In this document: in pieces, positions 32,200 through 56,881 of the stretch | How the letters are laid out: every line of letters starts with the position of its first letter | Position numbering within the stretch: position 1 is the stretch's first letter | Sequence record: NC_135728.1 | Length of the DNA stretch: 64,000 nt | Reading direction: 5' to 3' (one strand) | Source of the DNA: a phage | Program-made: the position numbers and the translations under genes | Notes under the pieces: model-generated | What the model was told of the DNA's origin: nothing | Databases searched by the model: none | What the model saw: only the letters and a program-made list of their open reading frames with translations

Positions 32200-32840
32200 C
32201 ACCTGAGTGAACAGGGTGAACAACCGAACCATTGGCTATGGCATTAGCATGGCGAAGCGGACGGGTGACGAAAGAGGGGCCGGAGGACACCAGTCACTGC
32301 CATATGATATATGGGTGATAACCTGAAGAGTCTGAATAAGTGTTTAAGTACCAGTCAGAGGAAAAGGTGAATGGTAGCCGAAGGGGGAGGGGGGTTACCT
32401 GCTTCTGTAAACATGCATCTGAAATACTACTTTAGATAACCTGAACCTGCCTTTCTGACAAATATTCCCTATTAAACTTGAATTATTTATAGAAAATACC
32501 ACAACACCACTTAAGTCTTTGATTTTACACACAAATCTTACAGATATTAAACCTCTCTATTTAACATACCTGTAACATATACTATACTCCACCTGTCTGA
32601 TCAATTTCCCCAACTACATCCCCATATTTTCCCTGTCTGTACTACCCCTGCCCCGCCGGGAGTCCCGTCATATCTGGCTTTCCAGCAAATATCACACCCA
32701 CAAATATCATCACCTGAAGAGGGTTTCATCCCATAATACATGCCTTACCTGAAGAGCGCTTCATATACCCCGTAAATTTTTTAATTGACCCCCTCCCCGC
32801 CGCCGGAGGGGTTGGCTTTTCCCACACAAACCTGAAGAGT
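32200..32840. repeat. dispersed ACCTGAAGAG repeats in non-coding region
   Basis: ACCTGAAGAG read at about 32322, 32712, 32750 and 32830, with ACCTGA half-sites at about 32205 and 32440. Confidence 0.5.
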
Positions 32841-33394
32841 CAGCCAGAAATATCTGAACAGCCAGTTATACCACGATTTTGTGCTTGTCCTACAGGAGTG
32901 CTTCCCTGTCAGGAGCCGGTAGCGACTGGAGTGCTGCCAGGCGGACGAAATGGGAATACTTCTCATTCTTATAACAATTCTCAAATATCGAGGCAGTGAG
33001 GCAAATTAATAGGTGAGGCCGTTCACACAGTGGCACAACATTTGCAACCTATCTTGTGGGATTGAATGAGAATACCTATCATTGTGAGAACTGTTATCAT
33101 TACGGGCAATTTAACATAATACCCATTATGCGCACCACTGGCGATACATACAGGGATTTATAACATGAGTTACTGTTTACGTATATAACAATTATATTTC
33201 TTACTATTTGTGTGGGATATAGTTAGCAGCCGATAGATTAGATATTGACCTGCAGACTTCCAACCGTCTAGACGTCTAAACGCCCACACAACAAGGTTTA
33301 TACATACATTACTGAATGTAAACAGGGCCGCAAAAATGCTACCATACAAGATTGTAAATTTTTCATGCAGCACTTGACAAAGAGGAGAAAAACT

Positions 33395-33476
33395 TGTCTG
33401 ACACTTTAGACACAATAGTGACATAATATGACACCTTTGACACACTGGACACATTAAACATAATTGACATGCCTGA
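33395..33476. repeat. array of (T/A/G)GACA(C/T) hexamers at about 10-bp spacing
   Basis: tgacac, agacac, tgacat, tgacac, tgacac, ggacac, tgacat read in series in AT-rich context. Confidence 0.5.
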
Positions 33477-33509
33477 CTGTTTACATAGCTAACTATTTAC
33501 TAAAAAATG

Positions 33510-33850
33510 ATAAGCCATGCCATTCGTTTGCATGATAAAGATTAGCAAGTTAATAATCTTTCGCTGGCTATGCCAGGTGACCTTTGGTCACCCCTTCGGG
33601 TGTTTCTATGACATAATATAAAAGCAGGGCAACTATTAGCAGATCATAGTTGCCTTGCTTGTTAACACCCTTGAGACGAAGGCTTTGCCTGAGTTTATGT
33701 CATGATTAACTAAATACAAGGCAACTATGATCTGATTAATAGTTTGCAGACAAACTATCACGGGGGTGATGGTTACTGCTTTTATATTATGTCGCGACTC
33801 CGTCGCGCCATGCCATTCGTTTGCATAGTTGCCTTATTGTTACGAATAAA
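33510..33850. repeat. inverted and direct repeat complex
   Basis: 18-bp perfect inverted repeat GACATAATATAAAAGCAG / CTGCTTTTATATTATGTC (about 33611 and 33777); direct repeat GCCATGCCATTCGTTTGCAT (about 33515 and 33808); palindromes GGTGACCTTTGGTCACC and GGCAACTAT...ATAGTTGCC. Confidence 0.55.
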
Positions 33851-34452
33851 ACAATTGCATTGTTAATGATTTCTTATCTTTCTCTTAGTCATCTAATGAT
33901 TCCAGTCAGTCTAGTAATGTACAGTAAACATTAGACGACTAAAGATTTCCCTGTTTATGATAACTCACCGTGATAATTTCAGGCTGTTTACTAAAAATGT
34001 TGACACCTAAGCTGATTTATGTTATGCAGTTTACACGAATAATTATTTTATGCAGGTATTGACTATTCCGTTATTCTATGGTTGGAATAAATACTTAGCA
34101 GACTATAGAATGGTGAGCGTACGTAAATTCTGAGATCTGGCGGCTATAGTTATACTCGATTTTTCACGTAGAACACGCTTTTGTGAGTGTGTAAGTGTAT
34201 GACTTATAAAGATTTTTAGTTGTTGACAAGATATTGAAGATGTGCATCAGGTTAAATTTTGTGCAATAGCGGCATTACGTGCAATTCTGAGAGAGAAAAC
34301 GGGTAAAAATGGCCCTGCTACCACAAGATGAAAGATTATGCAATAGTTATTTTTATATGTATATTTGTACAGTAGGGTTAATTGCTGGCTTGTTGATTAT
34401 TCCACTTGCCAGGTGGGGCCGTTTGTGGTAGGAGAAATACAGACAAAAAGAA

Positions 34453-34480
34453 AGGGGCCTTTTAAAGCCCCTGATAGTTT
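34453..34480 (-). terminator. rho-independent terminator (minus strand)
   Basis: Minus-strand hairpin AGGGGC-TTTAAAA-GGCCCCT followed by TTCTTTTTGTCT after stop of 34491..34910. Confidence 0.5.
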
Positions 34481-34490
34481 AGTTAAGAAA

Positions 34491-34910
34491 TTATAATGAT
34501 TCGTATATTTCAAAAATCCGATTTGCCAGGTCGTTACGGTAGCGGAATTTTTCCTCACGTTTGATCATCAGATCTTTAAAGCCATATTCTTTAAGCACTT
34601 CATTAACTTTATGGCGGCATACCTTCATATTATCTTGTGCGTCACCAATAAACTTGTTGCTATGGTGCATGGCTTTAATTTCTTCTTCCAGGACCAGGGC
34701 AACTATGCGGACCGGATCAAGCTGATAGGCGGTAACATCAATGCGGCATTGTAAACGGCTTTTTACGTCTGCCACCGGATATACTGCAACCTCTTCCCCG
34801 TCAACATTGACAATAATTAGTTTACCATCGATTTCGAATCCTTTCGCCGCCGGACCGTGACAAAAAGCGTTATCAAAGCTATATGCCGGATTATTAGATT
34901 TAATGTTCAT
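34491..34910 (-). CDS. hypothetical protein
   Basis: 139-aa ORF with agagg RBS and upstream promoter. Confidence 0.5.
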   Translation of the reverse strand: MNIKSNNPAYSFDNAFCHGPAAKGFEIDGKLIIVNVDGEEVAVYPVADVKSRLQCRIDVTAYQLDPVRIVALVLEEEIKAMHHSNKFIGDAQDNMKVCRHKVNEVLKEYGFKDLMIKREEKFRYRNDLANRIFEIYESL

Positions 34911-34959
34911 GGTGTTTTTACCTCTTAGTTAATTTTCTTACAACTTCCCTTCAAAAAAG

Positions 34960-34988
34960 AATATAGCAAAACTGCCGATCCTTGTCAA
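34960..34988 (-). promoter_or_regulatory. sigma70-like promoter TTGACA-N17-TATATT with palindrome over -35
   Basis: Minus-strand hexamers read directly; ATCCTTGGTTGACAAGGAT palindrome spans the -35. Confidence 0.5.
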
Positions 34989-35055
34989 CCAAGGATAGCA
35001 TAATTTTTATGTGATCAAGGGGCTTTATTGCCCCCTGATCGTGCAACTTGTTGTA

Positions 35056-35319
35056 TTATTTGTTACTCATCCAGTTTTCCCAGGCTGCCTGATAATCTGC
35101 CTCACTGCGGCGGATCTCTTCTTGCTCTTCAAGTCGGATCTCTTCTTCCAGGTACCCCAAGATATCGGCTTTCTTGGTCTGGCGTAACATCCAATCATCT
35201 TTTTTACGGGTAAAGATCTTATATGCTTTCTCGCAAACCTCTTTTTTGCTACCTTTTTGGACTTCAAGAACTTTGTAGGCCATGTACTGAACTAGTTTAA
35301 GCTGATCAAGACGTTTCAT
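35056..35319 (-). CDS. hypothetical protein
   Basis: 87-aa ORF with agagg RBS. Confidence 0.45.
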   Translation of the reverse strand: MKRLDQLKLVQYMAYKVLEVQKGSKKEVCEKAYKIFTRKKDDWMLRQTKKADILGYLEEEIRLEEQEEIRRSEADYQAAWENWMSNK

Positions 35320-35379: not shown

Positions 35380-35652
35380 TTACTTACGGCGGCAGAATTC
35401 AAGCGTTTTTAATTGATAATCTTCCTCAGCCTGGAGTACAACCGCCTCGATCATTTCGTTGGCATTGTTGAAGCCATACCCTTTAGCGAACTCGTCCGCA
35501 CCACCTTCGTGATCATGTTCTGCGTTCATCGCTTCCACAAAATGGAATTCCAAATTGTTGAGGTAGGGGCTTGATGTGCCGTCTTCTTTTTCGATGAGAT
35601 CCCAAATAGCATTAAAACGTGATTCGACTTCTTGATTAATCCAGCTTGACAT
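35380..35652 (-). CDS. hypothetical acidic protein
   Basis: 90-aa ORF; upstream promoter and UTR hairpin. Confidence 0.45.
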   Translation of the reverse strand: MSSWINQEVESRFNAIWDLIEKEDGTSSPYLNNLEFHFVEAMNAEHDHEGGADEFAKGYGFNNANEMIEAVVLQAEEDYQLKTLEFCRRK

Positions 35653-44587: not shown

Positions 44588-44785
44588 TTATTTTTTATTA
44601 AACCAGTGGTTGATCTGGCCTTTTGTCAGGGCGCAACGATTAAGCTGTTGCCGGGTATAGCTCTGACCACGACGGAATTTATAAAGGCCTTGCCCGTTGT
44701 TGATGGTTACATCCACCCGGCAAATCACTTGATCCGTGACCACCTGGCGAGTGTTGCGACGTACTTTGATTCCGTAGGCGTTCAT
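44588..44785 (-). CDS. hypothetical basic protein
   Basis: 65-aa ORF with agagga RBS. Confidence 0.45.
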   Translation of the reverse strand: MNAYGIKVRRNTRQVVTDQVICRVDVTINNGQGLYKFRRGQSYTRQQLNRCALTKGQINHWFNKK

Positions 44786-44849
44786 GATTTTTTATCCTCT
44801 TTGTTAATTAGTGCGGTGTTGTTCACCTTGCGATAATAAGAATAACAAG

Positions 44850-44885
44850 AACTGCCCGAGCTGTCAACCATTATGTAAAATTATT
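44850..44885 (-). promoter_or_regulatory. sigma70-like promoter TTGACA-N17-TATTCT
   Basis: Minus-strand hexamers upstream of 44588..44785 with AT-rich upstream tract. Confidence 0.4.
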
Positions 44886-45014
44886 TTTTGGGTAGAATTC
44901 TCCAGCCGCCACCCCTGCCAGGTTTGCAAGCTTTCACTCTCCCACCTGGTCAGTTAGGTCCTGCTAGGGCTGGCCCCGCCAGGTTGCAGCAGTTGACGCA
45001 CTATGTTAGAAAAA

Positions 45015-45145
45015 TTTTTTGAAAAGTGTTGACAACGGCCCCACCAGGTGGCACAATATACATATCGAAAGGACGGCAGGCACCGGTGACGGGGGAGACA
45101 ACCACCGGGGATGGGCGCTGCATAAAATGAGAACGGTTATCATTA
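45015..45145 (+). ncRNA. candidate small RNA 1 (promoter plus structured region)
   Basis: AT-rich UP-like tract then TTGACA-N17-CACAAT; downstream GC-rich palindromic segment CACCGGTGACGGGGGAGACAACCACCGGGG and 3' motif GAGAACGGTTATCATT; no ORF. Confidence 0.3.
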
Positions 45146-45174
45146 TCATTTAAAAATTTATGCAAAAAGTCCTT

Positions 45175-45285
45175 GCTTTCTTTGTCCTGTGTGATACTAT
45201 AATAACAAGCCGGGGCAGCAGGGGCCGGGAGACAATCACCGGGCCTGCCCGTTATTCTGCAAACGAGAATGATTATCATTCAAAA
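45175..45285 (+). ncRNA. candidate small RNA 2 (promoter plus structured region)
   Basis: TTGCTT-N16-TACTAT with TG extension; downstream GC-rich segment GGGGCAGCAGGGGCCGGGAGACAATCACCGGGCCTGCCCG and 3' motif GAGAATGATTATCATT parallel to candidate 1. Confidence 0.3.
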
Positions 45286-45394
45286 TTCTAAATGAGAACT
45301 CCTCGCATTTAATAAATTTAATTAGCATGCTAATTACCATCCGTAACAATTTCCTATAAAACAGTATCCACTAAAATATTCCCATATAGAAATT

Positions 45395-45800
45395 TTAAAA
45401 ATCCATTTCTGAAAACGAAAAATCGATTTCGTCCCCAAAAATTTCAGGTCGAGAGCCGGAACGATTTCCAGAAAATCCGATTCAGAAAACGAAAAACAGA
45501 TCGAGTACTGAGAAATTTATCGAGAAAAATTTTCAGAAAATTCAATCTTTGAAATGAAAAACAGATCGAGTACCTGGAAAGCTGCACCGCAACTTCAAGA
45601 TAGTGGTTAGATTGTTACCATAGAAGGTCAAGGGTAAGTGGAGGGAGTTATAGTAGAAGGATGTGAGTATGTGCAGGAAATCTGTAATGGTGGTCTGGAA
45701 TATGGTGCAAACGATAGGATGGGTGATTCAGCTTGTCGCGCCCACTCTGAAAAAATCCATTTTAGTTTTCGATCCATTTTCTGATTTTCTAAGGATTTTA
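45395..45800. repeat. degenerate TTC(A/T)GAAAA repeat array
   Basis: At least 7 copies of TTCAGAAAA/TTCTGAAAA/TCCAGAAAA plus longer repeats GAAAACGAAAAA(T/C)(C/A)GAT and AAATCCATTTTAG x2. Confidence 0.5.
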
Positions 45801-45886
45801 AAATATCCAGCCCGGTGAAATATCAAAAGGAGGAAATCCATTTTAGAAATCCTCCTTACACTTGATATGCCAGGAATTTTCAAGTA

Positions 45887-46216
45887 TCAGCTGTCTTTGT
45901 TTTTAGGTTTGTACATGCGCAGAGGTATGGTCTTTGTAACATTCCATTTCCTCAACCCTTCCCAGCTCCAGTTGTGGGCGTGATACCCGGTTATGCATGC
46001 ACTGCTGGCGTGATCATAGGCATAAGAGAACGCTATGCGTAACAGGTGGGGCCAGTCTCTCCACGGCTGTGGTCCGTAAGCCTTTCTCCAACACCGACAT
46101 AAACTAAATGTCTCAAGAATAGGCAGGATAACAAATCCATACACCACCACCAAGATGATCAGCGCAATGATTGTCAGGAATACATACCCTGCAGTTGAAA
46201 TGATGATCTCTGTCAT
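45887..46216 (-). CDS. membrane protein
   Basis: 109 aa with N-terminal TM segments. Confidence 0.5.
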   Translation of the reverse strand: MTEIIISTAGYVFLTIIALIILVVVYGFVILPILETFSLCRCWRKAYGPQPWRDWPHLLRIAFSYAYDHASSACITGYHAHNWSWEGLRKWNVTKTIPLRMYKPKNKDS

Positions 46217-46413
46217 TTGTCATCCCCTTTACGAATATAGATGTGTGAGCCTGCCTGTATATAAATTTCTCGACCATCTTCTGCAAAGATGTGGAATACA
46301 CGGTCACCTTCGTATTCAACACGAGATATCTTCATAACGGTCTTCCCACCAGGAATGCGGATCTCATCCCCCACAGCAATGTTCCATGCAGATTTAAGCT
46401 TAAACATCGACAC
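46213..46413 (-). CDS. hypothetical protein
   Basis: 66-aa ORF, coupled. Confidence 0.4.
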   Translation of the reverse strand: MSMFKLKSAWNIAVGDEIRIPGGKTVMKISRVEYEGDRVFHIFAEDGREIYIQAGSHIYIRKGDDK

Positions 46414-46645
46414 CCTCCTTTGGGAACTTGAACTCTGGCATAGCCATATACGCTACAACAGGGTTGTGATCAAAGTAGAACTGACCATTAATTATCCCAG
46501 TTTTTTGCACATAGTCACCAGATCCTGCAAGAACAACCTCGCAAGCTCCGAAATCTACATTGCCATCCTCATCAGCCATGGCTACGATATACTTTCCAAG
46601 AGGCATGTTTTTAACGCCGTCTACAAATGTCCACTCTGTGTTCAT
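46400..46645 (-). CDS. hypothetical protein
   Basis: 81-aa ORF, coupled. Confidence 0.4.
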   Translation of the reverse strand: MNTEWTFVDGVKNMPLGKYIVAMADEDGNVDFGACEVVLAGSGDYVQKTGIINGQFYFDHNPVVAYMAMPEFKFPKEGVDV

Positions 46646-46654
46646 ACTTTACCC

Positions 46655-46987
46655 TTAAGGTAGCCAGTAAACAATCTCGCCTTTCAGCTTCATGTCGTTT
46701 CCAACATAAATTTGCCAGCCATCCATTTTAGCAACTGTAGGCCCAAAGTCATCCGCACCCCTTACCTCTTTCCAGGCTCCGTAGTCAGGTTGCCAGATAT
46801 AGAATCCACCTTCTTTGTCCCATGCTCCGTACACTACGTTCAACAGGTTTCCCATTGCAACAATGGTGGGCCGTGGGAATAATACATCTACAGATGCGCC
46901 ACAATTTCGAGTATCTTTTAAGTTGCAATCCCAAAAGATGTCTGCCAGTGTGGCGGCGATAGCTTTACGTCTTTCTAGTGTTACCAT
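46655..46987 (-). CDS. hypothetical protein
   Basis: 110-aa ORF. Confidence 0.45.
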   Translation of the reverse strand: MVTLERRKAIAATLADIFWDCNLKDTRNCGASVDVLFPRPTIVAMGNLLNVVYGAWDKEGGFYIWQPDYGAWKEVRGADDFGPTVAKMDGWQIYVGNDMKLKGEIVYWLP

Positions 46988-46996
46988 ATATCATAC

Positions 46997-47188
46997 TCAC
47001 TTGTTGTTAATAAGTTCTAAAACTTTCTGTCTTACTTTGTCAAGGTCTGTTGATTCAAAAACTGTGCGATATCCCCAACTTTGCCCATAGGAGTGACTGC
47101 AATCACCGTAGCACCATTGCTCAATTTGATAGTATTCAAGGAACGGGTGCTGTCTAACTATGATACCATCCCGGTTAAAAATTACCAT
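46997..47188 (-). CDS. hypothetical protein
   Basis: 63-aa ORF. Confidence 0.4.
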   Translation of the reverse strand: MVIFNRDGIIVRQHPFLEYYQIEQWCYGDCSHSYGQSWGYRTVFESTDLDKVRQKVLELINNK

Positions 47189-47251
47189 AATACATCGCTC
47201 TCTTTTAGTTTATGCGTATACTATACACTGCAGTTTTCAGATGTCAACCTC

Positions 47252-47446
47252 TTATAGATTGCTCCAGTACAATCGGCATTTACATTTTGGGCAATGAGGT
47301 TCTTTTATGTAATAACCATCAGTCTTTGGAACACTTTTTGGTGCAGTTTTAAGATTGTACCGAGTAAAACACCGGAAGCAGGTTACCTCTCCGACTTGTT
47401 GATCGTTGATCCACTCACCAGAGTAAAGCTCTTTCTTGTTTCTCAT
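47252..47446 (-). CDS. small zinc-ribbon protein
   Basis: ORF track 47252..47503; ATG at 47446 after gggagag RBS; CFRC...CPKCKC paired Cys motifs. Confidence 0.4.
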   Translation of the reverse strand: MRNKKELYSGEWINDQQVGEVTCFRCFTRYNLKTAPKSVPKTDGYYIKEPHCPKCKCRLYWSNL

Positions 47447-47643
47447 AATTCTCTCCCTAATCCTCTGCAATCTTCTACCAGAATCTCCAGCCAGAAAGCA
47501 CAAGGGAACACTTTAAGGATTGAATCTTTACTCGGTTCGGAAGTTCTTTTTCCGTAGGGCAGGTAGAAATACCCTCCTGCAGATTCGAACACGGCCCCTT
47601 CGGTCGTATCTATCACAGCCAGAATTAAGATTTTAGTCTCCAT
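47443..47643 (-). CDS. hypothetical protein
   Basis: 66-aa ORF, stop overlaps next start. Confidence 0.4.
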   Translation of the reverse strand: METKILILAVIDTTEGAVFESAGGYFYLPYGKRTSEPSKDSILKVFPCAFWLEILVEDCRGLGREL

Positions 47644-47696
47644 AGTGCTCCCTCTCTCAATCGTTGTGGTGACTATACCATCTCAAAAGTCAGCTG

Positions 47697-48254
47697 TCAA
47701 CACTCTTTGTATTCCACCACGATAATATCTATATCAAAAGTGGCAAGGTTAATAACGTCCTCTACATGCTCCCACTTCAAACCGCCTATGCCGCACCCGA
47801 TTTTGGGGATGTAGAATGGTAAAGTCGATCCACTGAATACCTCATTGACCAGCTCAAAGCCTTTCAGGATTGAGAAATATTCAGCATTAGGCCCTGGGTA
47901 GAACTGAGTATACAGATTGATTCCGTAGACAATACCTCTCGGAGATGAGTGCTCCCATCGGGAGAACGCACCCAGTTTACTTAGGCAACCGTGTCTGGTC
48001 TCTTTGTCGGCTGACAATGCTTGAGGAAACTCACGGGCAATCTGTTTTGCTATGCCCTTACCCATCGTGTGGAAGCAGTTACAACCGTGGATCAGGTGAC
48101 CAGCACCGCTCTTAAAAAGGGAGATTAAATCTCCCTCTACAGTATCAATAATCACGGTATGCCAGCTCCTCTTCCGCAATTTCAAAAAACTCATCCCAAC
48201 CTTGTGGCATATTTGAGTTGCCGAAGTGGCTTTCATAGTAAAGGTTCTCACCAC
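47697..48254 (-). CDS. macro domain (ADP-ribose binding/hydrolase-like) protein
   Basis: VIIDTVEGDLISLFKSGAGHLIHGCNCFHTMGKGIAKQI matches the macro-domain N-terminal signature; true start probably internal because ORF overlaps upstream gene. Confidence 0.55.
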   Translation of the reverse strand: MVRTFTMKATSATQICHKVGMSFLKLRKRSWHTVIIDTVEGDLISLFKSGAGHLIHGCNCFHTMGKGIAKQIAREFPQALSADKETRHGCLSKLGAFSRWEHSSPRGIVYGINLYTQFYPGPNAEYFSILKGFELVNEVFSGSTLPFYIPKIGCGIGGLKWEHVEDVINLATFDIDIIVVEYKEC

Positions 48255-48570
48255 TTGGAAGATAGAAATCTGTTACCTCGTAGAATCCACAATCGTCGCA
48301 CTCGCCTTCTTCAAACTTGGCCTCAACCTTAATACCGAGGAAGGTGAAAAGTTTATGTATATCTTCAGTTTCGAACTCCCAGTGAATGTTGTTTTCCGCA
48401 TCGGTGTAGAACTGGATCAGCAGACCATTGTCCAGTTTACCAAAATACTCTGTGAAGTAACTCCCTTCCCAGAAATCTTTATGACAAATAATATCCATGC
48501 GCTTACCCATAATAATGGTGTGAGCGTTTTGGGCATCGTCATGAATCAGTTTTGGCATTTCATAGATCAT
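48145..48570 (-). CDS. hypothetical acidic protein
   Basis: 141-aa ORF. Confidence 0.45.
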   Translation of the reverse strand: MIYEMPKLIHDDAQNAHTIIMGKRMDIICHKDFWEGSYFTEYFGKLDNGLLIQFYTDAENNIHWEFETEDIHKLFTFLGIKVEAKFEEGECDDCGFYEVTDFYLPSGENLYYESHFGNSNMPQGWDEFFEIAEEELAYRDY

Positions 48571-48638
48571 CTTAGTTCTCCGGGTTCAACAGGTGGTGGT
48601 GCTACAGGAAGATCATAAAACATAGCTATCACAGTCTC

Positions 48639-48836
48639 TTACACAGGAATTGCTTCAAACAGGCCGTTATCTATACCGTCCTTCAGATAGAGATTATATT
48701 CTATGTCGGTATCTGTATAAAAGGCAGCATCCAGCATTCTATCTGTGAGTCCATCCATTGGGTGGAGAAACCACCACCCACGCCAGTCAAAGTAACAGCC
48801 TGGTGCATCTTCTCTTACACGGATTCGATAAATCAT
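48639..48836 (-). CDS. hypothetical protein
   Basis: 65-aa ORF. Confidence 0.4.
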   Translation of the reverse strand: MIYRIRVREDAPGCYFDWRGWWFLHPMDGLTDRMLDAAFYTDTDIEYNLYLKDGIDNGLFEAIPV

Positions 48837-48931
48837 GGGCAGTGGCCTCCTGTTAGTTATACATCCCAGTTTTCTTCGTTCATCACGTCCTCCAGTCTAT
48901 GAAGTTATAATTGCACACCTTTCAACCTGTG

Positions 48932-49348
48932 TCAACAGAAAACTTCAACAAACTCTTCCACAGTTTTAATGTCGTGGGAAAAAGGTTTACGGCTATAACG
49001 GGCAATAGCACTATCAACCACCGCCCGGTACTCCAAATCTTCAGAATATTTCATGAAGCATTGCAGTGTTTCTGGACAGATAGCTAGATAGCTCCACCAC
49101 CCTTCATCAGATTGATAGTCAAAGCCCATGCTCTCCAACCATGAAGCATATACTCCAGCACCCTCAAGCCAGTGGGTATTTTCATCCAGAAACTTGTTAA
49201 CAGACATGTGAGCTTCTAAGCACTTGTCCAGCTCTTTTCCGTTAACCAGCCACGCACTGACTGTGGCACATCCAAGGTCTACAGATTGAGTTGACAGGTT
49301 GTATTGGTCATAGTTCTCAGGTTTAACAATGATATCTTCTAATGTCAT
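48932..49348 (-). CDS. hypothetical acidic protein
   Basis: 138-aa ORF. Confidence 0.45.
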   Translation of the reverse strand: MTLEDIIVKPENYDQYNLSTQSVDLGCATVSAWLVNGKELDKCLEAHMSVNKFLDENTHWLEGAGVYASWLESMGFDYQSDEGWWSYLAICPETLQCFMKYSEDLEYRAVVDSAIARYSRKPFSHDIKTVEEFVEVFC

Positions 49349-49410
49349 TTTTCAGATCTCCTTATACAAAAATGCCCCACCCTTTCGGGCAGGGCTATGT
49401 TAACTAGATG

Positions 49411-50637
49411 TTAGAAGGGGATGTCATCATCAAAGGCGTACTGTGCTGGATTCTGATCCATCGGGTCGTCTTCCCCATCATTTACAGGAGGAGCGTCTAC
49501 AGTGTTTTGCTGTGGAGCTGCTTCCTGTTTGGCAGCCTGAGGTTCTTGATGGTCAGTTGACCCAGCACCGTTCTTGATCCAATCGTACAACGGCTCAGCC
49601 AGATTAGTCAACACATCTTTTGCTTCTGCAGTAATTGCCGCTGCAAAATCATCAACTTTCGTTTTCTTGTCAATACGGCGACAAGCGTTCAACACCGCAT
49701 TACCGACACTGGCACCTACTTCATCTTCAGTTCGGTTGGTGGCTTGAGCATACTCTTTCTTAAGCTCAATGGTGACTACGTGCAGTGCTTTAGCCACACC
49801 TAGTGGGTCGTCTACCTTAAACCCGCGATCCAGGATGATTTGCAACGCATTGATGCTATGCCCAGTCTCCACACCAATAGGGTCGTAAGAGGATTTACGC
49901 TTGCCACCAGAGCCTTGAGTGCCGTTCTCTGCCTTAGGTGGGTAGGCTTTGAAACCACTGATAATGTTTCCGGTGTCTTTGTCAACAATGGCTGCAACAC
50001 GACCACCTACCACCAGGTCTTTAAGCTGCTCATCAGTGACAACCATAGCACCTTCGCCAATCTTGTGGTCATTAACAGTAACCACGTTGCCAACAATCTG
50101 AGCCACATCGCCATAGATGCGTAAAACGTCCTGATTGGCATTCTGCTGAGGTTTCTGCTTCTGACCTTGTGATTGTGCACCTTGTTGCTGTTTTTGCTGC
50201 TGAGTCGCTGCTGGAGCCTCTCCTGCACCCAGCTTAACCATCTTAGCCAGTGAGCCTTTGTAGTAGGTCTTACCGTTATGCTCGTTTGCCTTCAAAGGAA
50301 TATTTACGATCCATCCTGTCGTTACGGTTTCCCACTTGTCATCAATCTTAACAGAGACAGAGTCTTGATGACCCGGTTTAAGCAGCTTATCACCCATGCT
50401 GATCCAGACTTCTTCACCACCTTGAAGCAGGTTATCAGAGGAATCCAGTTCAGAAATCAGTAAAGAGATGGTGTGGCTGGACTCAATTTTCTTACCTTGC
50501 CACACGGTGGTTTTAATACCTGTTGCAGGATCAGCCCCTTTAATAGGTTTGATGCTAACACGTTTGATCATACCGTGAGCCAGTAAAACAGTTTCACGCG
50601 GATTCATCGGGTTAGCAAATTGTTGAATAACGCTCAT
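49411..50637 (-). CDS. ssb: single-stranded DNA-binding protein-like (DDDIPF tail)
   Basis: C-terminus ends AQYAFDDDIPF, the acidic SSB tail; preceded by Q/P-rich low-complexity linker; 408 aa. Confidence 0.6.
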   Translation of the reverse strand: MSVIQQFANPMNPRETVLLAHGMIKRVSIKPIKGADPATGIKTTVWQGKKIESSHTISLLISELDSSDNLLQGGEEVWISMGDKLLKPGHQDSVSVKIDDKWETVTTGWIVNIPLKANEHNGKTYYKGSLAKMVKLGAGEAPAATQQQKQQQGAQSQGQKQKPQQNANQDVLRIYGDVAQIVGNVVTVNDHKIGEGAMVVTDEQLKDLVVGGRVAAIVDKDTGNIISGFKAYPPKAENGTQGSGGKRKSSYDPIGVETGHSINALQIILDRGFKVDDPLGVAKALHVVTIELKKEYAQATNRTEDEVGASVGNAVLNACRRIDKKTKVDDFAAAITAEAKDVLTNLAEPLYDWIKNGAGSTDHQEPQAAKQEAAPQQNTVDAPPVNDGEDDPMDQNPAQYAFDDDIPF

Positions 50638-54181: not shown

Positions 54182-54457
54182 CAATAGTTCAGGTAGGTCG
54201 TTAAGCTACCCCGCACCATTACGTGCATAGCCATACGTTTTCACGTAGGATCGGACCATCTCATATTCCTATGATAAGCAACCACAGGAATCCTCCCATT
54301 TCGACCGCACTTGCTGGTCTACTTCCTTTCGGAATGGCCTCTGAGCGTTCGCTCTTTTGAGCGCTTCGTTGCGGATTACCTTGCCATAAGGTTTAGGCTT
54401 CCCGCAGTTAAAGAGGTTATTCGACATAGATTACTCTATGAAGCCACAATGTTATTT
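54182..54457 (-). other. group I self-splicing intron in DNA polymerase gene
   Basis: 5' exon ends in U with U-G pair to guide sequence GUGG; intron ends in G; P10 pairing CAUU with exon-2 GAUG; core elements P AACUGCGGGAAG, Q AAUCCGCAAC, R CUCAGAGGCC, S GAGAUGGUCC in canonical order. Confidence 0.75.
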
Positions 54458-56881
54458 ATGGTAATAAATAATACGACGAACACCTTCATCGTACCACCCA
54501 CGCTTCACCATTTGGTGGTGCATGAGTATCCCAACTAAGTCACACAGCGATGCACCACCATTTTGTTGGTATGCATTAAGTAAAGAGTGTTTAGATCTGG
54601 TCCAGATAGCATGACCATCGAAAGAGTAGATAAACTTCTTACCTGTTGCTTCCCAGAATTTCTCCAGATCCTCTTTGCGCCCCTTAAGACCGGGGTTGGC
54701 ATCCCAAAGTGCATCTATTACCCTTTGCCCCAACTCTGGAGAGATGTCCAACATATCTGCAACTTTATCTTTTTGTGCCCCGTACATAACACCATACGTG
54801 ATAGGTTTACCGTCGTTACGGGACACCTCTCTGCCTGCTACTTTTGTATATGCCTCGGCATTGTTTTGGTGTGCGTCTCCGTTACTTACAACATCATAAT
54901 ACAGGCCGTTGTCGAACTCAAAGGCACCCCAAGCCCCGATAAGCTGCTCTAAGTTGGACCCGTCAATACCGATCTGAAAGTATCCGGGAGGAACACCCCA
55001 TAGACTACGCATCTCTTTACCCATAACCACTTTAGGAGATGGTTTAGGCATGTTTGCACAAATACTGTGTTTCTGTCTGGAAGTGTTTGTTAGCCCAGAA
55101 CTTTTAGCAGGAAGCTTATGGTCAATCTTCAAACGTGGGTGATTAAGAAGACCAGTATCAACCTTATCCTCCTTGATTGGGTCAAGGACCGATCTGCGGT
55201 TTCGCAATGATAACCACAAGACGATATCTTTAGCCATCTCTCCGTTCAATTTTTCAAGATTCGGACACAGGTGTCCAAACGTATCTTTCAGTTGCGGAGA
55301 AGTAATAAGTGCCCTGGCTTTTCTACGTATTTTCCCGAACACTTCCTTTTTAATCCTTTCGGAGTTAGGAAAGCTTCGGAACTTGTGCACGGTTGTCTGG
55401 AACTTAGCATCAGTTTTGTTCCAGAAGTTGATAATTAGGTCACAATACTCTGACTCTAAAAGCTCGTCCATATAAGCATATACTCGTGCATCAACATCTG
55501 CATCAGGTAGAGCTTTCTTCTTGCTGTCTTTAGTTACATCCTTAGTTCTCCACATTGTCGGGAGCCAGCCAGCGCTGATCAGATACCGCTTAATGTCGTC
55601 CTGATTGCTGATTTTCATAGGTATCTTGCAGTCCGGCATTCGCTTCTGCTGTAGATCACTTATTGCCTGATCCATCAGCTCTTTAGGCAAAGGGTGTGGT
55701 GTGGAAGTTCCCTTAATATAGCCTCTCAAGAAATCAGCCATCTTATCGGGGTCTTTGCAGCCCATCTCTTCACACCATTTTATCCCCATCTTGCTGACAT
55801 CCCCTGTAGAGGTAAATGCTCTCTTAGGCGGGGCTTTGAACTCTAAAGCGCTCATGTCTACAGGATAGCCAAGCTTATCTTTTAACCATTTCCAACCATT
55901 ATTAGAGATTGTCCCGTCTTGGTTAAACGGCTTTTCAGGGAACTTGGGCCGCTGAGACATTGACAGCTCTTTTAAAGGCAGTTGTGGTTCAACACGATCA
56001 GCTATTTCTTTCATCCACGCATCGCAACGGTCACGTAAAGCAATAGCTCCATCTATGTCGAAGTATACACCCTGACGGGCCTGCAGCTCCATCAGGAAGT
56101 GCTGCAGCATGCCTCGACGTAATGCGTTCTTCCAGGTGATCTTCTTGAACCCTTTCGGCTTCTCTTTGGCAGGATCGTACATAAAGTTCTGCATGTCAGA
56201 TTTGCCGTAGAATACACCTTTTGATTCCGCTACCAGCTCTTTCCAGAGCAGCTCCTGGATGATAACGTCCTCGAATACACGATCCACATACTTCCACAAC
56301 GGGAGATCGCGCCAGTCATCAATTTGAACTTTCTGGTTACCAAGGGCGTAGCCCCATGCCATAAGACCGTGAGGTCCAACAGGCTGCATTTTCTTAGTAA
56401 CCGGGTTAAATACTGAGTCTGGACAACCTTTTGGCAAAGGTCGGTCAGGCCACAAAATTCGGCTCATAGCCAATGTATCAAACAGATTAACCTGGTGGTC
56501 GTTGATAGTCCCCATACACTTAGGATCACGGAACATATCAAAATGAATACCGGACAATCTCTCCATCAGCATAAAGTCGTAGCTGTAGCAGTTGTGGCAG
56601 TTCAAAGCTGTGGGTGACCAGTCAGAATTGCCTGTAAGCCAACCTTCCAACTCTGAAAAATCTGCTATGCGAACTTCAAAATCTTTATAAAGAGTTTTCT
56701 TTGCCAGAATAAAGTTCTTAGCCTTCTCTATATCCTCTTCAGAGTAGTGTGTGCGGTCATTTAGAGGAAGGAACAGCATAAAACGGTTCTTATTCAGCTC
56801 TTTAAACAAGCCGCAGTGATAATAAAGATCTAGGTCTTCTAGTAAACCAGAGGCCTCCAGGTCGAAAGACCACATACTCAT
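54458..56881 (-). CDS. DNA polymerase (family A), exon 1
   Basis: 3'-5' exo motif FDLEASGL; polymerase motif A-like QIGIDGSNLEQ; motif B KPITYGVMYGA; ORF stops one codon after YYH, just before the expected HDE. Confidence 0.8.

Follow-up and report, generated by a model that had tools for sequence, protein, structure and literature searches.

Setting and content of the locus

We analysed a stretch of 64,000 nucleotides of phage DNA (NC_135728.1, hereafter the window) and describe here the interval 44800-45886, a gene-free locus with promoter-like sites, hairpins, palindromic boxes that resemble operators of the host regulator Fur, a repeat array and a fast-evolving segment. Using a 1.25-kb query around the locus, the window was recognised as a Vequintavirus (rV5-like) genome. 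Of the 121 phage records that the query matched, 107 align with 80% or more of its length and most share 90-95% identity; these Vequintavirus records include rV5, FV3, Murica, FFH2 and the BASEL phages as well as unannotated 'Campylobacter phages' at 99.8% identity, and over 100 genomes carry the locus at 94% conservation. The nearest records (99.8%) are titled 'Campylobacter phage A147/A135' and carry no annotation, though the genome is that of a Vequintavirus of E. coli, and the Campylobacter host labels on those 16-17 records are probably wrong.

The locus is embedded in a long block of small minus-strand early genes, which runs leftward from the DNA polymerase and primase-helicase genes. 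Since it is bounded by the promoter of the leftward genes on the left and by a terminator-like hairpin on the right, it can be regarded as a self-contained unit between two minus-strand transcription units. The hairpin, which directly follows the stop of the minus-strand gene 45887..46216 and is probably the terminator of that gene, shows a T-to-C variant with which a G-U pair is possible on the minus strand only, and in two genomes a different hairpin is found at 45828-45856 with the pairing still kept. Within 35000-64000 of the window, GC skew is about -0.065 to the left of the locus and -0.12 to the right, and AT skew about -0.14 and -0.07 respectively, a change which suggests that two gene classes or two replication-strand regimes meet at this point. 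The features recognised are the following, where RNA A denotes a unit of other genera described below.

44839..44867, minus strand: leftward sigma-70 promoter TTGACA-N17-TATTCT, 10/12 matches, TG before the -10; left boundary of the locus
44890..45000, plus strand: decayed remnant of RNA A, with a -10-like TAGAAT at 44893-44898 and an inner hairpin CCAGGT...ACCTGG; folding z-score +0.87
45009..45057, plus strand: promoter P1, with an A/T-rich upstream tract, TGTTGACA (-35 at 45029-45034), N17 and CACAAT (45052-45057)
45076..45121, plus strand: hairpin of element 1, conserved loop motif GGGAGACAACCACC at 45093-45106; folding z-score -1.4
45127..45147, no strand assigned: Fur-box-like operator 1, ATGAGAACGGTTATCAT, which the minus strand reads as GATAATGATAACCGTTCTC
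45173..45200, plus strand: promoter P2, with TTGCTT (3/6) at 45173, N16 and TG-n-TACTAT at 45192-45200; weak -35, extended -10
45213..45250, plus strand: hairpin of element 2, GGGCA.../...TGCCC, loop motif GGGAGACAATCACC at 45227-45240
45251..45283, no strand assigned: Fur-box-like operator 2, ACGAGAATGATTATCAT at 45263-45279 and a 19-mer at 45265-45283, TTGAATGATAATCATTCTC on the minus strand
45292-45308, no strand assigned: degenerate third box, ATGAGAACTCCTCGCAT
45319-45336, no strand assigned: perfect palindrome, TAATTAGCATGCTAATTA
45385..45580, plus strand: AT-rich array (69% AT) of three direct repeats of about 57 nt, starting at 45385, 45459 and 45524 and thus spaced 74 and 65 bp
45576..45750, plus strand: G-rich, C-poor, fast-evolving segment; candidate structured RNA domain of about 170 nt
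45751..45827, plus strand: conserved block with AAATCCATTTTAG at 45753 (also at 45834 and 45399) and AAATATC boxes at 45801 and 45818
45828..45856, minus strand: hairpin AGGAGGA...TCCTCCT

An earlier reading made from the letters of this DNA (the sequence-only reading) had taken 44800-45886 to be non-coding, and the analysis bears this out. The longest open reading frame (ORF) of the region, 45001..45279 on the minus strand with 92 amino acids, is annotated as hypothetical in rV5, Murica and FFH2. Among 13 Vequintavirus genomes, however, its variable sites number 12/11/13 by codon position as compared to 20/11/51 in the adjoining real gene, and it contains 1-2-nt gaps in four of the genomes and two stops in one. 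In Klebsiella phages, the same conserved DNA hits a stop after 7 codons of this frame. Neither a ribosome-binding site nor a Pfam family was found for the ORF; on the basis of the flat codon-position profile, the frameshifts and the stops, protein coding by it is ruled out.

The two rightward promoters proposed by the sequence-only reading fared differently. P1 (TTGACA-N17-CACAAT at 45029-45057), with its AT-rich upstream tract, was recovered at a score of 10/12 in a sigma-70 scan, has a spacer within 16-18 nt, A at -11 and T at -7, and agrees with the early-promoter consensus published for Certrevirus (PMC7344957). P2 is present with the extended TG as described (-10 at 5/6 plus TG), but is weaker, since its poor -35 (3/6) fails the -35 rule of the simple scan, which therefore misses it, and its score falls under the threshold. 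By number, the promoter-like sites of the region (2 against 3.0 expected) are not above chance. Syntenic sigma-70 sites are found in ten lineages, 29 on the plus strand and 13 on the minus strand over the ten loci, in keeping with the claim of plus-strand promoters antisense to the flanking genes; the promoters homologous to P2 in other genera read TTGCAA-N17-TATATT and TTGATC-N16-TATTAT. No plus-strand ORF is encountered for more than 4 kb past P1 and P2, which leaves their transcripts without a coding target.

Elements 1 and 2 constitute a tandem duplication with a period of 134-142 bp, and the GC-rich structured segment that was said to follow each promoter is indeed there. Element 2 beats its shuffles on the plus strand only (folding z-score of -2.39, versus -0.61 on the minus strand). 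Within Vequintavirus, the two elements together (45026-45300) show 0-12% variable sites per 25 nt, whereas the adjacent genes show 8-20%.

For the repeat array, the longer direct repeats noticed earlier were found as the three copies listed above, which are 63-75% alike and have the cores TCGAGAGCC (45449) and GATCGAGTAC (45499 and 45564). The count of at least seven copies of TTC(A/T)GAAAA was overstated, although the clustering is real: exact plus-strand copies of TTCWGAAAA occur at 45407, 45481 and 45532, one of them reading on the minus strand as well, and a count of seven requires that one mismatch be tolerated and both strands be searched. Of the window's seven exact matches, four are in this 130-bp stretch. 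The repeat that matters is a 65-74-bp unit with the core GATCGAGTAC, and not TTCAGAAAA. On the minus strand, repeat unit 1 reads as a hairpin plus a T-run.

Shared architecture and Fur-like boxes

A sensitive search with elements 1 and 2 detected 272 records. The locus is shared by the Klebsiella/Raoultella Mydovirus-like phages, Serratia phage Kashira, Certrevirus (phiTE, CR8, F2M1E) and Seunavirus (GEC_vB_MG, 4MG), and also occurs in Phapecoctavirus ukendt, which belongs to a different subfamily, and in Aeromonas phage 2L372X (Plateaulakevirus). Conservation of the elements in related genomes, a point raised by the sequence-only reading, extends over Vequintavirinae, Phapecoctavirus and an Aeromonas Plateaulakevirus. 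The order of elements is the same across these lineages although the flanking genes differ, and on the plus strand it runs as follows.

First: a variable small plus-strand ORF, of three unrelated families depending on lineage; absent in the window
Second: a sigma-70 promoter, then the highly conserved GC-rich RNA A (GACGCCACCCCACGGCGAAAAGGCGGGGCTAAC...)
Third: a second promoter, then the hairpin RNA B, with conserved loop AGACAAnCA(CC) and variable stems
Fourth: one to three palindromic boxes, with a third promoter in some genera
Fifth: an A5T6 tract, then three repeats (63-78 bp; a different array in ukendt) that end in GATCGAGAnCC
Sixth: a spacer, AAATATC(A) boxes and the end of the next minus-strand gene

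No homologue of the small plus-strand ORFs of other genera was found in the window. RNA A, of about 90 nt (GACGCCACCCCACGGCGAAAAGGCGGGGCTAAC...GGAAGGTGGATCGCCGGTAGCTCG), lies just after a strong sigma-70 promoter and is nearly invariant across genera (L003 2306-2400; L004, L010, L015, L022-L026). Examined qualitatively, its inner hairpin covaries (ACCAGG/CCUGGU, GCCG/CGGC) and its loop changes in length by steps not divisible by three. Vequintavirus carries RNA A in decayed form, while its RNA B has been duplicated into elements 1 and 2. Most Vequintavirus genomes also contain an insertion of 177 bp at about 44920 that encodes a minus-strand ORF of 58 amino acids (L002 1672-1848), and as it is flanked by the direct repeat CCCYGCCAGGTT, it resembles a small gene cassette put into the decayed RNA A. 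The loop AGACAAnCA of the hairpin is invariant among genera with the stems differing, the stretch from the loop to the box motif is 75-88% conserved in other genera, and the outer stems of RNA B show, again qualitatively, G-U pairs and U/C alternations that pair on the plus strand only. In other genera, TTTGTAAAGAAnnGTAAAGA (GTAAA-N5-GTAAA, which we take to be the CpxR-P consensus) stands immediately upstream of the -35 of the hairpin-unit promoter (e.g. L003 2410-2437; L015, L022-L025), and it is absent from the window.

No Rfam or ARAGORN match was obtained at the locus in the window and four other genera, with nothing at the gathering threshold and chance-level scores at E<=10. In the record of Klebsiella phage K45PH128C2 (OY978796 10349-11044), tRNA-Lys, tRNA-Ile and tRNA-Met are annotated at the homologous locus. 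tRNA genes were rejected as content of the locus, given that ARAGORN finds none in that record or in the window and that Rfam reports no tRNA; the tRNA coordinates in the record are probably misplaced.

On the right-hand side, every Vequintavirinae genus examined, and likewise the Aeromonas phage, has three homologous units with the core GATCGAGAnCC, and Phapecoctavirus ukendt has a different repeat array at that place. In other genera, the AAATATC boxes follow one another at intervals of 11-13 bp. Ten of 11 lineages keep 224-239 bp between their last GATCGAG repeat and their first AAATATC box, with unrelated intervening sequence.

The palindromic motif GAGAAYGRTTATCATT occurs at 45129 and 45265, and with one mismatch at 33086 (3 copies in the window against 0.12 expected). 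It had been described as a shared 3' motif; the repetition is there, but its form is that of a palindromic, Fur-box-like DNA operator and not of an RNA 3' motif. The left half of operator 2 pairs in a small plus-strand hairpin as well (45251-45273). Natural Fur sites typically match the 19-bp consensus at about 11-16 of the 19 positions. Scanned on the plus strand against this consensus (GATAATGATAATCATTATC; PMC3788343), box 1 (45129) scored 15/19 and box 2 (45265) 14/19, and a hand count on the minus strand gave 16/19 and 15/19, the 13-nt core AATGATAATCATT being exact in box 2. With respect to the 7-1-7 inverted repeat TGATAATnATTATCA, box 2 (TGATAATCATTCTCg) has one to two mismatches and box 1 has three, and the centre across genera is a free 3-nt spacer. 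Overlapping Fur-like sites are found 6 bp apart at 45123/45129 and 45259/45265; clusters of Fur sites are known to follow a 3- or 6-bp spacing rule (PMC2189734).

On searching box queries against 5,426 complete E. coli genomes, the best match of a 38-nt query around box 2 was to the nupC-mntH intergenic region, at 19/19 in 3,923 records and spanning the mntH -35 through the box, while 34 nt spanning a Salmonella-phage box, used as a query, matched the yhhY-yhhX interval directly upstream of RyhB. The boxes are nearly identical to these two promoters: element 2 agrees with the ryhB promoter at 21/23 and its reverse complement with the mntH promoter at 19/19, and the Klebsiella-phage box agrees with the ryhB promoter at 21/22. 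These matches arise from the short box queries only, as a 131-nt blastn query of element 2 yielded nothing in E. coli at E<=1. The limits of the mntH Fur box were taken from the sequence and are reportedly those of Patzer and Hantke 2001. Few Fur sites of E. coli are as strong as that of ryhB, which has 25 bits and has been verified by gel shift (PMC2189734), and mntH is repressed by both Fur and MntR (PMC8970401).

Box 2 further lies within the spacer of a weak minus-strand promoter (TTGAAT at 45283-45278, N18, CAGAAT at 45259-45254). This layout, that of a Fur-repressed promoter, recurs in most genera, although Klebsiella phages, phiTE and the Aeromonas phage lack the A at -11, and the promoter would face P2 across the hairpin. 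Judged by sequence, the boxes are candidate Fur-box-like operators of the type found at Fur-repressed promoters of E. coli.

The wider family TGAKAATNATTMTCA has 8 matches in the 64-kb window against 1.8 expected, seven of which fall inside, or on the border of, the two non-coding regions of the window (32951, 32969, 33067, 33085, 33533, 45128 and 45264), the eighth, at 35414, being just past the edge of the first. This first region, 32800-35300 (2.5 kb between convergent gene blocks), carries the same box family at 32950 (ATGGGAATACTTCTCAT), 33066, 33084 and 33533, GACAC/GACAT words about 10-11 bp apart (33390-33480) and five terminator-like hairpins on the plus strand (counting all terminator-like sites, 6 are present where 1.7 are expected), and may hold small RNAs or an origin. 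The same box (TGAGAATGATTMTCA) also lies upstream of genes resembling small terminase subunits, both in phage contigs that are unrelated and in a prophage of E. coli (L006 1560-1670; L014 2597-2615; L039 1490-1520), where its copies are single or, in the contig L006, four in tandem with GC-rich spacers. The exact 19-mer TTGAATGATAATCATTCTC is present in 15 IMG/VR contigs, phiTE included.

The fast-evolving segment 45576-45750

Within Vequintavirus, 45-60% of the sites of the segment 45576-45750 are variable, whereas variation in elements 1 and 2, in the repeats and in 45751-45850 is lower than in the adjacent genes. In 29 genomes the segment is 70-73% identical with flanks that are 91-95% identical, and third codon positions of the flanking genes differ by just 9-18%; the segment evolves faster than silent sites, while its length remains constant within 3 nt. 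Its GC skew is +0.33 as against -0.2 in the flank. The equivalent spacer of Klebsiella phages is not variable, carries TTGAGATA repeats and has a skew of -0.13, and that of Seunavirus has a skew of -0.02.

An alignment of 13 sequences was assembled, for which eight alleles were additionally fetched; a scan of IMG/VR for further Vequintavirus alleles gave one contig. On the plus strand, RNAalifold predicted 31 pairs with a covariation term of -4 kcal/mol. Standard pairs occupy 95.3% of the cells, as compared to 91.7% in shuffled alignments (none of 500 reaching the observed value) and 29-48% with slid partners, and double-changed cells number 20, as compared to 8.9 (again none of 500) and 0-9; the double changes fall in 7 of the 31 pairs. 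Of the one-sided changes, a large share go from G-U to G-C or A-U, for which the opposite strand would have an A-C mismatch. In an alternative long-range helix (45580-45585 with 45731-45736), one position takes the forms C-G, A-U and U-A. The minus-strand consensus is poorer, with 29 pairs of which 4 are compensatory. The plus-strand covariation and G-U wobble patterns make a non-coding plus-strand RNA plausible, and the folding and covariation analysis that the sequence-only reading had called for supports a plus-strand fold best in a stretch that lies outside the elements it had named.

Two candidate functions were tried and rejected. For a CsrA sponge, considered for the G-rich segment, this genome has one near-consensus GUAGAAGGAUGU, but the alleles do not share the GGA motifs. 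A ToxI mimic was considered for the repeat array, and no ToxI-like match was found in the window or in related loci. phiTE, of the same phage group, does contain a pseudo-ToxI (antitoxin mimic), which likewise is a non-coding, repeat-bearing, fast-evolving locus; it lies elsewhere, however, at phiTE 106714-106772, and differs in repeat length (about 36 nt, ToxI-type) and phasing. The pseudo-ToxI repeats (106680-106820; L027 1480-1620) were observed to lie within a sequence that resembles a split tRNA gene (TCTATAGCTCAGC, repeats, GCAGGTCCGAGGTTCGAACCCGTCCAGTTCCACCA). Elsewhere in the window, a group I intron (RF00028, 64.7 bits) is located within the DNA polymerase gene at 54232-54467 on the minus strand, and the polymerase coding sequence of phage MaxTheCat is annotated as two joined pieces.

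Readings of the locus

We tentatively favour, at somewhat less than even confidence, the reading that this is a Fur-gated, rightward-transcribed non-coding RNA locus of rV5-like phages, a scheme in which Fur binding, promoter firing, the direction of the iron effect and the role of the RNA are all predicted. Host sigma-70 RNA polymerase would read the locus rightward from P1 and P2, against the flow of the early genes, through two tandem units (promoter, GC-rich hairpin with the AGACAAnCA loop, operator) and then through the array, the structured RNA domain and the terminator of the next gene, such that each transcript would begin with a conserved hairpin and pass across a candidate Fur operator. 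In the presence of iron, Fur-Fe2+ would occupy the operators, which lie about 70 bp downstream of the predicted P1 and P2 starts and overlap the weak leftward promoter, and this occupancy would set the amount of rightward transcription that enters the repeat array and the structured domain. With Fur off, the leftward box promoter would fire into P2 (convergent interference) and read-through would be altered. The product would be a non-coding transcript whose amount depends on the iron status of the host.

Compared with the ryhB and mntH operators, the likeness lies in the near-identities given above, the sites overlapping at a 6-bp offset and, for mntH, the box in the spacer of a minus-strand -35/-10 pair, and possibly in a 7-1-7 site with one mismatch. 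The phage sites differ in that they lie in a gene-free locus of a virulent phage, downstream of strong promoters and with a variable centre, and Fur binding to them is a prediction. Similarly, as in small RNA genes of the RyhB type, a Fur-like operator stands beside sequence that is under selection for RNA structure and has no coding capacity, and a response to iron would follow; the locus has, however, no similarity to RyhB beyond the operator and no Rho-independent terminator or defined 3' end, and the strongest phage promoters, P1 and P2, lie upstream of the operator and are not overlapped by it. The locus would combine a candidate Fur operator with a phage locus of non-coding or origin type, and is a member of no curated family.

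Several observations weigh against a Fur-gated RNA. No plus-strand terminator-like site was found in 44600-50000 (the locus plus the next 4 kb), and therefore no discrete small RNA ending in a Rho-independent terminator is defined. The z-scores of the promoter-proximal hairpins (-1.4 and -2.4 on the plus strand) are modest, RNA A has neither an Rfam match nor a thermodynamic folding signal, and RNAalifold on a MAFFT alignment of the hairpin unit across genera recovered the palindromic box alone and no consensus hairpin, because MAFFT leaves the stem arms out of register. The shuffle control overstates the significance of the covariation, since the 13 related sequences amount to about four allele classes and two sequences appear recombinant. 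As to the boxes, the cross-genus consensus ATGAGAA-N3-TTMTCAT has a free centre (CGG, CCA, CTC) that departs from the AAT-n-ATT core of Fur sites, and a phage protein could therefore be the binder; there are two to eight Fur-like sites per genome with no obvious benefit. Many DNA repeats in the same orientation fit DNA-binding proteins better than an RNA product, and literature searches returned no transcript data for any relative. The sequence-only reading had left the choice between small regulatory RNAs and a second origin-like locus: a non-coding plus-strand RNA is plausible and the origin-like features are real, but small RNAs defined by terminators are not seen.

The alternative that survives best, which we consider possible though on the unlikely side, is a replication origin of the T7 or T4 type. 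Tandem promoters for host RNA polymerase would fire into AT-rich repeats, the transcript would open or prime the DNA as an R-loop, and the repeat families (GATCGAGWAC, AAATATC and AAATCCATTT) would be binding sites of replication proteins. It is compatible with the Fur-gated reading, as Fur would then gate the firing of the origin. The layout resembles the T7 primary origin (1.1A/1.1B plus AT-rich DNA) and T4 oriF/oriG, with two or three tandem plus-strand promoters leading into the 69% AT block of three phased repeats and then into a stretch that is G-rich and C-poor on the non-template strand, which would favour R-loops; this G-richness is, however, not universal, as the Klebsiella and Seunavirus skews indicate. 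rV5-like phages also have a T7-like primase-helicase and polymerase, and their origin was not located by the rV5 authors (PMC3606486). A structured, fast-evolving transcript, predicted here, would recall RNA II/RNA I of ColE1. The phage locus differs from the T7, T4 and ColE1 systems in combining host-RNA-polymerase promoters, several repeat families and Fur-like boxes, and an origin of T7 or T4 type does not need covariation of an RNA fold.

Iteron origins (lambda ori, P1 oriR, R6K) offer a second comparison, with direct repeats in the same orientation adjoining AT-rich DNA. Here three such repeats lie in the AT-rich block together with two further repeat families, and the AAATATC boxes of other genera are about one helical turn apart. 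The constant distance between the two repeat arrays despite unrelated intervening sequence, as well as transcripts devoid of a coding target or a terminator, speak for the T7- or T4-type origin. On the other hand, the main repeats are 65-75 bp apart, unlike classical iterons, and no initiator gene adjoins them: the flanking proteins are without known function and not conserved between genera, and the neighbouring small plus-strand ORF varies by genus and is absent here. No conserved DnaA boxes and no GATC enrichment were found at the locus. The shift of GC and AT skew levels could be cited for an origin, but its sign is the one expected at a terminus or where gene class changes, and the non-coding region at 32.8-35.3 kb, with its GACAC words at helical spacing, is at least as origin-like. 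A second origin-like locus, as proposed earlier, thus keeps its tandem promoters, AT-rich array and repeat families and lacks the initiator gene, DnaA boxes and GATC enrichment.

A purely DNA-level boundary appears improbable to us. By this account, the locus would consist of terminators of the right-hand minus-strand genes, the promoter of the left-hand genes and operator arrays for a phage-encoded regulator, the resemblance to Fur sites would be convergent, and the plus-strand promoters would be incidental or would simply block read-through by convergent transcription. The minus-strand promoter at 44867-44839, the terminator hairpin that tolerates changes on the minus strand only, the hairpin plus T-run of repeat unit 1 on that strand and the change of composition and gene class at which the locus sits all fit such a boundary, as do the free centre of the boxes, unlike that of Fur sites, and the regulon-like marking of both non-coding regions by the same boxes. 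However, when two independent box queries were run against the entire E. coli collection, their best matches were two classical Fur promoters, the plus-strand promoters are kept in position and quality over ten lineages, and the wobble and compensatory changes in 45576-45750 are specific to the plus strand; no candidate regulator gene is conserved beside the locus.

Less probable still is a decoy, in which high-affinity boxes on a genome that replicates to hundreds of copies would titrate Fur and derepress host iron uptake and Fur-repressed functions to the advantage of the phage. The boxes resemble the strongest natural Fur sites, such as that of ryhB, they are clustered in this phage, and the arrays of four in the unrelated contig L006 are spaced too tightly for promoters. 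Fur is present at thousands of copies per cell, however, and there are just about 8 boxes in the 64-kb window, which is about half of the genome, and a local role in regulation is suggested by the strict position that the boxes hold behind the hairpin unit in each genus. We give hardly any credence to minus-strand small proteins as publicly annotated in rV5, FV3, Murica, FFH2, MaxTheCat and Mangalyan (the 92-residue ORF over elements 1 and 2, and ORFs of 32-84 residues over 45628-45883), given the coding tests above and the right-hand annotations that differ in frame and length among genomes, the Shine-Dalgarno-like GGAGGA of one ORF being an arm of the terminator hairpin.

Neither the locus nor the occurrence of Fur boxes in virulent phages was found described in full-text literature searches, looking up the box sequence itself in papers gave nothing, and the sole mention of a Fur box in phage genomes that was found concerns sitABCD in lambdoid prophages. 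In the rV5 paper the region is a box labelled 'non-coding' in the map (PMC3606486).

Returning to the Fur-gated RNA, a more far-reaching form of it, which we regard as speculative and rather unlikely as a whole, is that virulent rV5-like phages and their relatives (at least three taxa on eight host genera) use host Fur operators of the ryhB/mntH kind to gate a rightward non-coding RNA and tune their development to iron, by way of the start of replication or of a regulatory or decoy RNA, with the core of about 170 nt under diversifying selection. That core could be a specificity determinant between co-infecting phages, or a decoy against host defence.

rV5-like phages are broad-host-range candidates for therapy and biocontrol, in which this locus is annotated as hypothetical ORFs only. 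The minimum gain from the analysis is that several spurious genes can be struck from more than 100 genome annotations and that a conserved set of cis-elements is available for engineering these phages; the fast-evolving, structurally constrained segment offers a candidate for a new phage non-coding RNA that can be put to the test. If Fur binds the boxes, a strictly lytic phage would have wired the metal sensor of its host into its own programme, and the outcome of infection would vary with the availability of iron, a metal in short supply in the gut and at sites of infection.

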